From a virus (lineage: Duplodnaviria > Heunggongvirae > Uroviricota > Caudoviricetes), in the IMG/VR virus record IMGVR_UViG_2565956719_000002: a stretch of DNA of 64,000 nucleotides; one strand, 5' to 3'. Shown one piece after another: positions 2,850 to 51,540 of this stretch (position 1 is the first letter of the stretch; every line of letters starts with the position of its first letter). The notes beneath the pieces are model-generated. The model was not told the origin of the DNA, searched no databases, and saw only the letters and a list, made by a program, of their open reading frames with translations. Made by a program: the position numbers and the translations under genes.

Positions 2850-2871
2850 GAGAAGTTACTTTGCATACCAT
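2850..2871 (+). promoter_or_regulatory. Late-promoter-like element (weak variant)
   Basis: GAGAAGTTACTTTGCATACCAT aligns with the motif shared upstream of lysozyme, portal, pacA and the baseplate block. Confidence 0.3.
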
Positions 2872-2899
2872 TACCTCCTGACAACGTAGGAGGGAACTT

Positions 2900-3229
2900 G
2901 TGCTTGACACACAGGAATTAGCTCCAGTTGCTATTGCGCTCCTGCTTTCAGTAATTGGTGGGATAGGCACGTTCCTGATGGATGTCCGAGACGGTCGCCA
3001 GTCTGGCAATTTGTTGGGATTGGTTACGGAGATCTTTGTTGCAGTGACAGCTGGCGCGGTGGCGTACCTATTGGGGCAACACGAGGGCTGGGAGTTATCA
3101 ATTACGTACTTAATGGTAACGATAGCCAGCAATAACGGTCATGAGGTGATTTCAGGGATGAAACGAGTGAATATCGATAGCATTCTGAATGTTCTTACAA
3201 GTTTGGTGAAAAAGGGAGGCGGGAAATGA
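2900..3229 (+). CDS. lydA: Holin (LydA-like)
   Basis: 109 aa, hydrophobic segments, GTG start; position relative to lydB/darA-like genes. Confidence 0.55.
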   Translation: MLDTQELAPVAIALLLSVIGGIGTFLMDVRDGRQSGNLLGLVTEIFVAVTAGAVAYLLGQHEGWELSITYLMVTIASNNGHEVISGMKRVNIDSILNVLTSLVKKGGGK

Positions 3230-3669
3230 TTGGCTGGGGTGTATGCGTTCTTGCGTTAGCCTTAGCCGATCGCTATTTGCTAAAACGCAAGGACATCACG
3301 CATTTAGAACTTGGTGATGTGGAAATTAAACCGGGTTTCATCCGGGTGCCGTTCAAATACCGGTCTAAATTCCCGTTTTTGCGCGGCGCAACGGTCAGAT
3401 ATTGGATCCGCGATGTTCAGAAGCCGACGACAGTGATTGAAGGCGAACAACGTTGTTTGACGTCGGCTGAACAGGGCGAAAACAGTGAATGGTTGTACAT
3501 ACCCACTGAATATATGGGTAAAGGAGAGCGACTGTGGCATTTCAACGTCATGGTTACGCATGGCGACTCGTTCATTAACCCGTTGTATCGGATTTTCCCT
3601 GTTACTCAGCAAATCCGCAGAAGTTACGTAATAAATCTCGCACAGGATGTGTCAGATGACGAAAAATAA
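3226..3669 (+). CDS. lydB: Antiholin-like protein (LydB-like)
   Basis: 147 aa, N-terminal hydrophobic segment, start overlaps holin stop. Confidence 0.5.
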   Translation: MIGWGVCVLALALADRYLLKRKDITHLELGDVEIKPGFIRVPFKYRSKFPFLRGATVRYWIRDVQKPTTVIEGEQRCLTSAEQGENSEWLYIPTEYMGKGERLWHFNVMVTHGDSFINPLYRIFPVTQQIRRSYVINLAQDVSDDEK

Positions 3670-4258
3670 GTATGCAACGGTCGATTTTGACCAGGTTAAT
3701 GAAAAGGGGCTGAAATCCCTTATCGCGGCGATCAATAAAACCGGTGTTACGGTAATTGAGGTTGACTCCAGCAACCGCGCAACAACGAAAGATGGCGTTA
3801 AAGTTAAAACCGCAAAGCTGGTTCTTAACGACGGACAAATTCTTGCCATACAGGTAAACGATACTGGCGATATATCGTCTGTGAGGCTGAATGGAAAAGC
3901 TATTCCTAACGCTCAATCGCCGGATATCAAGACGCTTGGTACCGTCATGGGGCAAGCGGCCCGCAAAAACTCCGCAAAATTCCAGAAATCACTGATCGCC
4001 AAAGCGAAACGTGTTGCCAATCCGGTAGACAAGAAACCGGCAGTAAAATCCAATTTTCAGCGCCTGCAAGAGGCAAAACAGCGGAATGCTCAGGTGGTTG
4101 CCGCTTATAAATCAGCGCAGAACTCGGTGTCTTTCAATCAACAGCAGATCACTGATTTGCGGGCGAAGCTGGATAAGGAGACAGGCCGACTCAATAACGA
4201 AAAGGCCCGAAATGGCGAACTCAAACGCCGTCTTAAGCAACTGAAAGCAGGAAATTAA
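3647..4258 (+). CDS. hdf: Hdf-like protein (paralog of a DarA segment)
   Basis: 203 aa; shares a KNSAKFQ-containing coiled-coil segment with the downstream 639-aa protein. Confidence 0.55.
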   Translation: MCQMTKNKYATVDFDQVNEKGLKSLIAAINKTGVTVIEVDSSNRATTKDGVKVKTAKLVLNDGQILAIQVNDTGDISSVRLNGKAIPNAQSPDIKTLGTVMGQAARKNSAKFQKSLIAKAKRVANPVDKKPAVKSNFQRLQEAKQRNAQVVAAYKSAQNSVSFNQQQITDLRAKLDKETGRLNNEKARNGELKRRLKQLKAGN

Positions 4259-4259
4259 C

Positions 4260-6179
4260 ATGGAACAGTTCAATATCAATAAAGGGGTGACGATCAAGCC
4301 TGGGCTTGACGTGCTTCCCCCGCCAGTGACTGATGATGAATATCGCGCATTAATGGCCGGTGAGGACCGCTATCTGATGACGGAATCCAACACCCTGGAG
4401 GAAATCGAGGCTACGTTCTTCTATGACACGCCGATCCACTGGTGTGCTACGGATTTACTGGAGGCGATTAGTTCTACTCGTTTGCAGTTACACCGGACCA
4501 TGCAGGCATTTGTCCGGGCATTGAACCAGAAGCTGAATGGTACCGGAATCTCTGCGGGGAGTGATAAAACGGGGGATGTGGCCCAGAGCGGCGCGCGCGC
4601 GATCGGCGGCGCTGAAATTGGCCGGGCACGTAACGTTAACGGGCTGCCGGTCTTGCCAGCCATTATTCCGCTCAGTGATGGTCAGACTATCAGCATTCTG
4701 TTTCATAGCCCGACAGCGGAAAACCGGATCACCAATAGCGATACGCTGGTTGCTTTCCAGTTCTTACTGAATAAAAAAGACGTTACTCACACCGTTGCTC
4801 CGATGAGTGGACGTGATATGACGCTGGCGCAGGTCACCATGAAACTTGCCAACCTTGCAGAGAAAAACTCGGCAAAATTCCAGCGTGCGCAGAAGAAGAA
4901 AAAAGCCCTTGTTGATGAAATAACCCAACTACAGGCTGACAGTGACCAGAAAGAGGATGCCATGAGCGACCTCGCGGATCAGGTGGCAGCGGTAGAAGGG
5001 CAGAAGGCAGATCTGGAGCAGAAAATTAACGCTGTTGCATCGGAAGCGGATTCTCTTTATGAAGAGAATGAGCGTTTGCAGACGGAGATTGATCAGCTCA
5101 ATCGCACTGGTGGGCGCGATACCATTGCTCCAGCGGGGATGACTGGTGGGCACTCTCGCGCGCTGACGGATCGCCTTGCCAGTATCAAAAATCGTATGCA
5201 TATGGACGGGGAAGTGACGCTCAGTAATGGTGCATCAATGAAGCAATTCATTGGGGGCGGCGAAGGGTATATCCAGTTAACCGATCAGGATGGCAGCGTA
5301 TACATGATCAAGGCTAAATCCATACAGGGTGTGGACATGGCAGATGCGATCGGCAAGCTGTTTAAAGCCTATAAAGCGGGTAATGTATCGGAATACCTGG
5401 TCCAACCAGAAGAACATAAACCGGAAAACGTCGAACCTGAACCAGCGGAGGATACCGGTAGCTCTTCGCCTGAACCAGAAGTCTCTGTAGGTGCATATCG
5501 ATATGCCCTGCAAATGCGTCCGGCGGCCCCTGGCGCAATACCTGAAGGTAACAAAGCAATTCTGCCGCGCCCTGATGAAGGTGACCCGTATTATGAATAT
5601 GCACGCTACGGCATTGCTACTTACGATACCCCGCTTTCTGATCAGCAAATGAGTGAGTACGACCTGAAGTTATTGCCTCGCGAGGATTCTTTCGACTTCC
5701 TGGCGAAGACACTTACTAATGGTCCGTTTGGCAAATATGCACAAAAAACTCTGGATCTGGCCACCAGCTCACCAGACGAGTTCCGCGTAATGCTGAAAAC
5801 TCAGTTTCAAAAAACTTTCCCCAATATTGCGTTTCCGGGGGGCGCTGGCACCGAGAAAATGGTGCAGAGCATGATCAATACATTGCAGGCCGAAGTCGGT
5901 GAGATTACTCAGCCAGAACCGGCCCCGGCACAGCCTGATGAAACGGTTAGCGAAGCAGATGCAGAGGCTAATAAAGCCATTGAATATCTCAATAACGTGA
6001 TGGATATGCAAAGCACTGACATGGCGGAGATCCGTAACGCTCGGGGCAATGTCCGGGAAGCGATTGCAGCCCTTCAGGCTGCCGGACGTTTTGAGGAAAA
6101 CGAAGAGCTGGTTAACGGCGCAGCTCGCCACCTGGCTGATCTGTTGGTAGCAATCCAGAAAGCGGGGGTAGCGGCATGA
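4260..6179 (+). CDS. darA: DarA-like head-internal anti-restriction protein
   Basis: 639 aa, coiled-coil middle, acidic stretches; operon context hdf-darA-ddrA-ddrB. Confidence 0.65.
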   Translation: MEQFNINKGVTIKPGLDVLPPPVTDDEYRALMAGEDRYLMTESNTLEEIEATFFYDTPIHWCATDLLEAISSTRLQLHRTMQAFVRALNQKLNGTGISAGSDKTGDVAQSGARAIGGAEIGRARNVNGLPVLPAIIPLSDGQTISILFHSPTAENRITNSDTLVAFQFLLNKKDVTHTVAPMSGRDMTLAQVTMKLANLAEKNSAKFQRAQKKKKALVDEITQLQADSDQKEDAMSDLADQVAAVEGQKADLEQKINAVASEADSLYEENERLQTEIDQLNRTGGRDTIAPAGMTGGHSRALTDRLASIKNRMHMDGEVTLSNGASMKQFIGGGEGYIQLTDQDGSVYMIKAKSIQGVDMADAIGKLFKAYKAGNVSEYLVQPEEHKPENVEPEPAEDTGSSSPEPEVSVGAYRYALQMRPAAPGAIPEGNKAILPRPDEGDPYYEYARYGIATYDTPLSDQQMSEYDLKLLPREDSFDFLAKTLTNGPFGKYAQKTLDLATSSPDEFRVMLKTQFQKTFPNIAFPGGAGTEKMVQSMINTLQAEVGEITQPEPAPAQPDETVSEADAEANKAIEYLNNVMDMQSTDMAEIRNARGNVREAIAALQAAGRFEENEELVNGAARHLADLLVAIQKAGVAA

Positions 6180-51175: not shown

Positions 51176-51177
51176 AA

Positions 51178-51423
51178 TCAGTCAAATCCTGCCGGTCGCA
51201 TGCCATATTTACGCTGTTTTGCGGCCTGCTCTTCCCTGTGCCATTGCGCACATTCAGCGTCACAATAAATGCCTGATTCAATCGATTCATTGCAGTAACG
51301 ACACTTCCCTGTAAATACCTGGCTCACGACCTGTGCCTGCTTTCTGATGTTATCGATGGCCATGTCTTTGAGAGCTTCTAACTGATTCATGCTCAGCTCT
51401 GCATCATCAACACGTTCTGCCAA
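51178..51423 (-). CDS. TraR/DksA-type C4 zinc-finger protein
   Basis: 81 aa with CRYC...YCDAEC. Confidence 0.5.
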   Translation of the reverse strand: MAERVDDAELSMNQLEALKDMAIDNIRKQAQVVSQVFTGKCRYCNESIESGIYCDAECAQWHREEQAAKQRKYGMRPAGFD

Positions 51424-51480
51424 TTTTGTTTCCTCGTGAAGAACCTACTTAAGGGCAGAATGATACATTTCACAATCAAA

Positions 51481-51497
51481 ATTGCACTAATAATTTT
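51481..51497 (+). promoter_or_regulatory. C1-operator-like box in divergent region
   Basis: ATTGCACTAATAATTTT, 15/17. Confidence 0.45.
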
Positions 51498-51518
51498 CTT
51501 TTATTGAGTTAAATATTC

Positions 51519-51540
51519 AACAAATGACTAGCGGTAGAAT
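51519..51540 (+). promoter_or_regulatory. Late-promoter-like element upstream of the rightward structural block
   Basis: AACAAATGACTAGCGGTAGAAT, best match to the shared motif; 30 nt before ATG 51570. Confidence 0.4.

Follow-up and report, generated by a model that had tools for sequence, protein, structure and literature searches.

Probable Lpa-dependent late promoters in a P1-like phage-plasmid and the asymmetric element conserved in this promoter class

The late promoters of bacteriophage P1 form a known class, whose description dates back to the early 1990s and whose members carry annotations in the reference genome. The P1 record AF234172 contains 11 annotated 'late promoters' (LPmat, LPpro, LPlyz, LPdar, LPs, LPsit, LP23, LP26, LPpmgL, LPhot and LPpac), each with a 9-bp '-22 region', a spacer of 4 nucleotides (nt) and a -10 hexamer, LPhot being the exception with a spacer of 9 nt. 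The mechanism of these promoters has been covered in several papers (PMC10695390, PMC3152322, PMC1891329, PMC7515715). The late promoter activator Lpa, which is gp10 of P1, binds DNA at a position centred at -22 and the host protein SspA is required as co-activator (PMC3152322, PMC1891329), a requirement that is documented for P1 late transcription in PMC1891329, PMC7515715 and PMC8201110. Lpa is a sequence-specific DNA-binding protein and is thought to contact SspA directly; SspA itself does not bind late-promoter DNA (PMC1891329). By cryo-electron microscopy, SspA was seen to bridge region 4 of sigma-70 and the zinc-binding domain of the beta-prime subunit without touching DNA (PMC7515715). 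No solved structure of Lpa exists, and our literature search returned no paper on a structure of Lpa with SspA and the polymerase. Here we analyse a recurrent promoter-like element in a stretch of 64,000 nt, hereafter called the window, from a virus of the Caudoviricetes (IMG/VR record IMGVR_UViG_2565956719_000002). On the strength of their near-identity to P1, the copies of this element are very probably Lpa-dependent late promoters of a P1-like phage-plasmid.

The window belongs to a P1-like phage-plasmid that is about 98% identical to P1 and is presented in the inverted orientation. Alignment of the whole window to AF234172 placed its plus strand on the P1 minus strand; the part of P1 that is covered begins at about 31.8 kb, runs downwards across the lox origin and ends at about 66.2 kb. 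Most of the blocks common to the two genomes are 96-99% identical. A 10-kb piece of the window was found to be about 98% identical to P1, P7, SJ46, RCS47 and other Punavirus genomes, and another piece of 20 kb matched many P1-like phage-plasmids from E. coli, Salmonella and Klebsiella. About 92% of the window is coding and about 8% is non-coding.

A preliminary description of the window, made without awareness that the class was already annotated and experimentally characterised in P1, had aligned four sites without gaps as AACAAG-TGA-CT followed by TAnnnT, before the lysozyme, portal, pacA and baseplate genes, and had reported a weaker variant before the holin gene. All five sites are present, they do align without gaps, and they map base for base onto LPlyz, LPpro, LPpac, LP26 and LPdar of AF234172. 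They lie at the positions first given for them, except that the end assigned to the lysozyme site (12519) stops 3 nt short of the end of its TATCCT hexamer (12522). The list of sites was incomplete: its five members are genuine, and the orthologues of LPmat and LPpmgL had been missed. The window thus contains seven of the 11 P1 late promoters (LPdar, LPlyz, LPpro, LPmat, LPpac, LP26 and LPpmgL), LPs, LPsit and LP23 being located outside it.

The LPlyz orthologue (12501-12522, plus strand; AACAAGTGAtTTGCATTATCCT / AACAAGTGATTTGCATTATCCT, one mismatch to the earlier consensus) is composed of the box AAGTGATTT at 12504-12512, the spacer gcat and the -10 TATCCT at 12517-12522, and it lies 87 nt upstream of the ATG of lyz (endolysin) at 12610. 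On the minus strand, the LPpro orthologue (16245-16224; AACAAGTGACTAGTGTTAAATT, no mismatch) has the box AAGTGACTA at 16242-16234, the spacer gtgt and the -10 TAAATT at 16229-16224, 43 nt upstream of the TTG of prt (portal) at 16180. The LPpac orthologue, also on the minus strand (34382-34361; gACAtGTGACTTTCGTTACCCT / GACATGTGACTTTCGTTACCCT, two mismatches), is immediately downstream of lpa and 36 nt upstream of the GTG of pacA (terminase) at 34324; its box ATGTGACTT is at 34379-34371, its spacer is tcgt and its -10 is TACCCT at 34366-34361. The LP26 orthologue (51519-51540, plus strand; AACAAaTGACTAGCGGTAGAAT / AACAAATGACTAGCGGTAGAAT, one mismatch), with the box AAATGACTA at 51522-51530, the spacer gcgg and the -10 TAGAAT at 51535-51540, is at the head of the operon 26-25-7-24-6-5, whose first ATG, that of the baseplate wedge gene 26 at 51570, follows after 29 nt. 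The weaker variant before the holin gene corresponds to LPdar (2850-2871, plus strand; gAgAAGTtACTTTGCATACCAT / GAGAAGTTACTTTGCATACCAT, three mismatches). Its box AAGTTACTT at 2853-2861 is followed by the spacer tgca and the -10 TACCAT at 2866-2871, 28 nt upstream of the GTG of lydA (holin) at 2900, and it heads the operon lydA-lydB-hdf-darA-ddrA-ddrB. In a greedy gene map, LPdar fell within an antisense open reading frame (ORF), which was set aside as spurious in view of the P1 annotation and the holin match.

The LPmat orthologue (24575-24554, minus strand), annotated in P1 as 'late promoter LPmat; former LP2', has the box AAGTGACTT at 24572-24564, the spacer gagt and the -10 CAGAAT at 24559-24554, and differs from P1 LPmat by one spacer base. 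The hexamer TTGACA, annotated Pmat, is located 19 nt upstream of this -10. The promoter precedes mat by 19 nt according to the start annotated in P1 and by 129 nt according to the likelier start. The mat frame of the window (24394-24534 and 23783-24451, minus strand) is shifted by one base relative to the annotated 251-codon mat of P1. A 213-codon form starting at the ATG at 24424 (MDKKICVV...) matches phrog_1837 end to end, and for this reason the longer N-terminus of P1 mat is probably an over-annotation. The seventh orthologue, annotated in P1 as 'late promoter LPpmgL', occupies 51530-51512 on the minus strand (TAGTCATTT gttg AATATT); it is the divergent partner of LP26, whose box it reads on the opposite strand, and it points at pmgL (TTG at 51423).

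All six canonical orthologues are found in short non-coding gaps, 19-87 nt upstream of the genes that they face, and the identity of the products was checked by matches for the holin, endolysin, portal, terminase and baseplate wedge. The elements are the same as in P1 or nearly so (0-1 base differences inside them), they precede the same genes with the same layout of -22 box, 4 nt and -10 without a -35, and the genome has the same activator gene behind a C1 operator.

The recurrence of the element was compared with expectation in the window. The earlier pattern, allowing up to three mismatches, gave 11 matches versus 4.6 expected, and none of 100 shuffles reached 11. When the core and the -10 were taken together with at most one mismatch, eight matches were obtained versus 2.07 expected, again in none of 100 shuffles. 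With a matrix derived from nine of the annotated late promoters of P1, seven matches of at least 20 bits were obtained versus 0.003 expected; this test is partly circular because six of the training sites have orthologues in the window. A non-circular matrix was therefore trained on LPs, LPsit and LP23 of P1 alone, all outside the window; it gave seven matches of at least 14 bits versus 0.71 expected, and its top eight sites were the six annotated orthologues and two extra sites. In a search for k-mers enriched in the non-coding DNA, the C1 operator dominated, not the late motif.

In the gap-free alignment, the 9-bp '-22' box (AAGTNACTT-like) stands exactly 4 nt upstream of the -10, which conforms to TAnnnT at five sites (TACCAT, TATCCT, TAAATT, TACCCT and TAGAAT). 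These -10 hexamers are weak, with three to five of six matches to TATAAT. In agreement with the preliminary description, which had placed TAnnnT at a -10-like position without a -35, the best match to TTGACA at 15-19 nt from the -10 did not exceed three of six at any of the five sites. None of the sites combined at least nine of 12 matches with a spacing of 16-18 nt, as would be expected of an unassisted sigma-70 promoter; the sole TTGACA is that of LPmat, at a 19-nt spacing. A sigma-70 scan of 51300-53500, around LP26, found no promoter.

To define the conserved unit, nine P1 and eight JK004 sites (17 in total) were aligned, the JK004 sites having been found with the P1 matrix, which introduces some ascertainment bias into this alignment. 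The dinucleotide AC located 5' of the annotated box carries 2.0 and 1.7 bits, the last T of the box only 0.8 bits. At the mirror positions of this AC, within the spacer, the information content is just 0.1 and 0.3 bits, and complementarity is seen in only 5-6 of the 17 sites. The 5' AC thus outscores the final T, and its mirror positions show no conservation. The conserved unit is therefore the asymmetric 10-bp ACAAGTGACT, within which lies the short palindrome AGTNACT; it is not a symmetric palindrome of 9 bp. The AACAAG-TGA-CT of the preliminary description is hence a better description of the element than '9-bp inverted repeat'.

The presumed activator is encoded within the window. The lpa gene (34411-34863, minus strand) was identified from its translation and by homology; its product of 150 amino acids is 99.3% identical to P1 Lpa and 100% identical to that of phage SJ46, matches Pfam PF25716 (BPP1_LPA, 'Late promoter-activating protein') with 193 bits and belongs to phrog_1704, 'Lpa-like transcriptional activator'. 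These matches, together with the P1 literature, bear out the earlier proposal that the promoters would be read by an Lpa-like protein encoded at 34411-34863, and the orthology of the sites with annotated P1 late promoters speaks likewise for the activator-dependent late class that had been proposed. Upstream of lpa, the orthologues of Olpa and Plpa (34895-34950, minus strand) comprise the C1 operator ATTGCTCTAATGTATTG at 34950-34934, overlapping a sigma-70-type promoter (TTGCTA, 16 nt, TATTAT). They would place Lpa under the prophage repressor C1, the role of the operator being taken from the P1 annotation. Matches to the C1 operator ATTGCTCTAATAAATTT are numerous in the window (15 versus 0.31 expected) and provide the most enriched words of its non-coding DNA, with sites for example at 12460-12476, 24684-24700, 28515-28531, 34934-34950, 45715-45731, 51481-51497 and 61716-61732. 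The 15 matches, of 17 bp each, differ from the late sites in both coordinates and sequence.

The timing of expression was followed in published RNA sequencing (RNA-seq) data of P1vir (PMC8201110, Table S1), which come from that phage and not from the element in the window. Genes belonging to operons that follow one of the nine canonical late promoters (37 genes) were compared with the other 61 genes. At 10 min, the median log2 change was 4.2 for the late-promoter genes versus 7.1 for the others (Mann-Whitney p=1.5e-11), and from 10 to 30 min the rise was 6.8 versus 4.2 units, respectively (p=3e-13). The lpa gene was already at 6.6 at 10 min. The pmgL gene was also high at 10 min, which is consistent with additional early promoters.

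Taken together with what is known of P1, these data are compatible with the following scheme. Each promoter would consist of a weak -10 with the conserved box 4 nt upstream and no -35. In the prophage state, C1 bound to the operator over the lpa promoter would keep lpa off; upon induction or infection, Lpa should be synthesized from its sigma-70 promoter and would then open the late promoters. According to the P1 literature, Lpa on the -22 box and SspA would together let the sigma-70 holoenzyme start at promoters that it otherwise ignores. The box is expected to fall in the spacer where SspA sits, between sigma region 4 and the beta-prime zinc-binding domain, and because of this location we infer that DNA-bound Lpa would replace the missing -35 contact through SspA. 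As a result, the operons for lysis (lydA, lyz), head (prt-pro, mat), packaging (pacA-pacB) and tail/baseplate (26-25-7-24-6-5) would be transcribed late and in a coordinated manner.

Several observations weigh against this interpretation. Function at the window sites is transferred from P1 by near-identity, and the experimental basis in P1 was itself taken from secondary literature and GenBank annotation. The element is not uniform: the -10 of LPmat is CAGAAT, in P1 as well, and not TAnnnT, which is why LPmat escapes a TAnnnT filter, and LPpmgL is a poor fit to the asymmetric consensus. A counterpart of LPhot upstream of hot was looked for in the window and none was found, the DNA upstream of hot having diverged from P1 here and being devoid of the LPhot box. 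Some motif-less genes, such as darB, are also late in the P1vir data, so the motif is not the sole route to late expression. Finally, the 9-bp box AAGTNACTT alone, with one mismatch, is not enriched in the window (22 matches versus 22.1 expected); the palindrome alone was consequently dropped as a usable signature, and it is the full element at fixed spacing that gives the signal.

A box as frequent as in shuffled DNA is what would be produced by the chance or compositional recurrence of a short degenerate pattern devoid of function, and the earlier pattern at three mismatches does pick up evident noise as well, for example at 10663, 47682 and 41909. This explanation is nevertheless extremely improbable for the sites described above, since the full element is strongly enriched and its annotated copies lie, correctly oriented, in the 8% of the DNA that is non-coding, form islands of conservation with JK004 and are annotated in P1. 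The element could also be read as belonging to the leader of the late messages and acting at the transcript level on RNA stability or translation, as distances of 19-87 nt from the start codons are also typical of leaders. This is scarcely credible, because the -10, at its fixed distance of 4 nt, is itself part of the element, which hence lies upstream of the expected start point and would not be transcribed from its own promoter; moreover, a stable hairpin would need a longer palindrome than the core AGTNACT, and P1 work assigns the motif to DNA binding by Lpa (PMC1891329, PMC3152322).

The sites might otherwise be constitutive or C1-repressed sigma-70 promoters, in which a repressor, be it C1/Lxc or a host factor, would use the box as its operator. 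C1 operators are indeed present near LPlyz (12460-12476), LP26 (51481-51497) and LPmat (24684-24700), and a predicted sigma-70 promoter, which includes a perfect TTGACA, overlaps LPmat. The C1 operator is however a different, 17-bp sequence, the sites combine weak -10 hexamers with the lack of a -35, the downstream genes are late and not early in the RNA-seq data, and the box has been assigned to Lpa binding and activation (PMC10695390, PMC1891329, PMC3152322). We therefore consider such promoters very improbable here, and retain Lpa-dependent late promoters as the reading of the sites.

The darB gene (window 16257-23024, plus strand) reaches log2 values of 4.8 at 10 min and 11.7 at 30 min in the P1vir data. 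No late-promoter element pointing at darB was found. The reversed LPpro box was considered as a late promoter for this gene and rejected, its would-be -10 being the darB ribosome-binding site.

Beyond the annotated promoters, a candidate late promoter that is annotated in neither P1 nor P7 was detected inside tail gene 7 (53224-53245, plus strand; AACAAGTGACTGGTGATAACCT, no mismatch, 21.9 bits). Its start lies 46 nt past the ATG of gene 7 (53178), and P1 has an identical copy (76780-76802, minus strand). The N-terminus of gene 7 is genuine coding sequence, as it is conserved in JK004 and as the PHROG match spans the protein end to end. JK004 keeps all the key motif positions at this site (CACAAATGACCGGTGATACGCT), which coding constraint could explain. 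Conservation among plasmids is uninformative here, because 488 of 493 plasmids are at least 95% identical in the region. In the RNA-seq data, a step-up of about 1 log2 unit was seen at gene 7 in the wild type and none in the dksA host. Just downstream of the site, another frame contains an ORF of 65 codons (53296-53493). On balance, the site may serve genes 24-6-5 as a genuine late promoter within the operon, a reading that we advance only tentatively and as somewhat doubtful, or else be cryptic. As a promoter, it could raise the expression of these distal genes of the long baseplate operon or give rise to an internal product. The joint reading, in which gene 7 would house a twelfth Lpa-type promoter and Lpa would recognise the asymmetric ACAAGTGACT, is rather unlikely. 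Were the recognition asymmetric, Lpa binding would be directional, and bidirectional use of the box common to LP26 and LPpmgL would be in doubt.

Two further look-alikes were noted. A weak site at 3162-3183 (plus strand; AACGAGTGAATATCGATAGCAT, 12.8 bits), which is doubtful, is located 42 nt upstream of the ATG of lydB at 3226, a start with a good ribosome-binding site, within the 3' end of lydA; its sequence is also present in P1 at 30900-30922. The match at 41909-41931 (minus strand; TAACAAATGACCACTATTACCAA), located in a non-P1 insert, was set aside as a probable chance occurrence, since the ATG of the ORF 41563-41925 falls within it and the T that should end its -10 is missing.

The window is also mosaic with respect to P1. 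The differences are located at about 23750-23828, 24682-26279, 29990-30324, 37640-37800 and 38662-44842, the last corresponding to a non-P1 insert of about 6 kb. The res-mod/IS5 region of P1 is absent from the window, and segments resembling P1 c4-icd-ant, 78-86% identical, are present at two other places.

The detection of these sites illustrates that a reading of the sequence alone can recover a genuine activator-dependent promoter class. In the annotation of the many P1-like phage-plasmids, which are often carriers of resistance genes, the element can serve to mark late operons. The P7 record has no late-promoter annotation with which the sites could be compared. What may be added to the known picture is the unannotated copy in gene 7, the asymmetry of the element and, as described below, the different box of phage D6.

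Among the relatives, the Cronobacter phage JK004 encodes an Lpa that is 67% identical, and its DNA is about 78% identical where it can be aligned. As in the window, ACAAGTGACT...TAnnnT precedes the syntenic operons, namely those for capsid, terminase, baseplate, portal, lysozyme, mat and tail; in contrast, the flanks have diverged, GACC replaces GACT at some sites and the promoters are unannotated in the JK004 record. At LPpro, LPpac and LP26, the motif forms a conserved island in the pairwise alignment with JK004, and the LP26 element is essentially the sole part of the spacer that can be aligned. Phage D6 is more distant, its Lpa homologue being 31.5% identical. It resembles P1 in having, at late genes, a box a few bases upstream of TAnnnT without a -35, but P1-type boxes are almost absent from it and the box is AAATCACAnnCT (AATCACAnnCT) instead, followed by TAnnnT. 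The pattern AATCACA[ACT][ACT]CT has seven matches in D6 versus 0.53 expected, and none in the window or in P1. This box fronts prt, lydA, R, pmgB, 23, 7, 26 and the lysis gene, with occurrences in the D6 record for example at 19217, 25230, 38124, 45500, 54133, 67402, 71022 and 72109. One of these boxes is thus placed before gene 7, and in D6 toxin-antitoxin genes separate gene 7 from genes 26-25. The comparison of P1 and JK004 with D6 suggests that the recognition box changes with the divergence of Lpa, which could help to predict late regulons in new phage-plasmids.

Outside the P1-like group, the MglA-SspA-PigR system of Francisella provides a mechanistic analogy only: there too, a DNA-bound activator acts via an SspA-family protein associated with the RNA polymerase (PMC1891329), and its authors cite P1 Lpa-SspA as a precedent (PMC1891329), whereas the system has another DNA-binding protein, other promoters and another biology, that of virulence genes. 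Phage Mu C, the gp55/gp33/gp45 proteins of T4 and staphylococcal RinA are likewise positive regulators of operons for late morphogenesis and lysis, whose promoters are poorly read by the host holoenzyme (PMC3152322). However, Mu C binds between -30 and -55, T4 replaces sigma, RinA is unrelated, and none of them uses a -22 box or SspA, as P1 does and as the P1-like phage-plasmid of the window very probably does.

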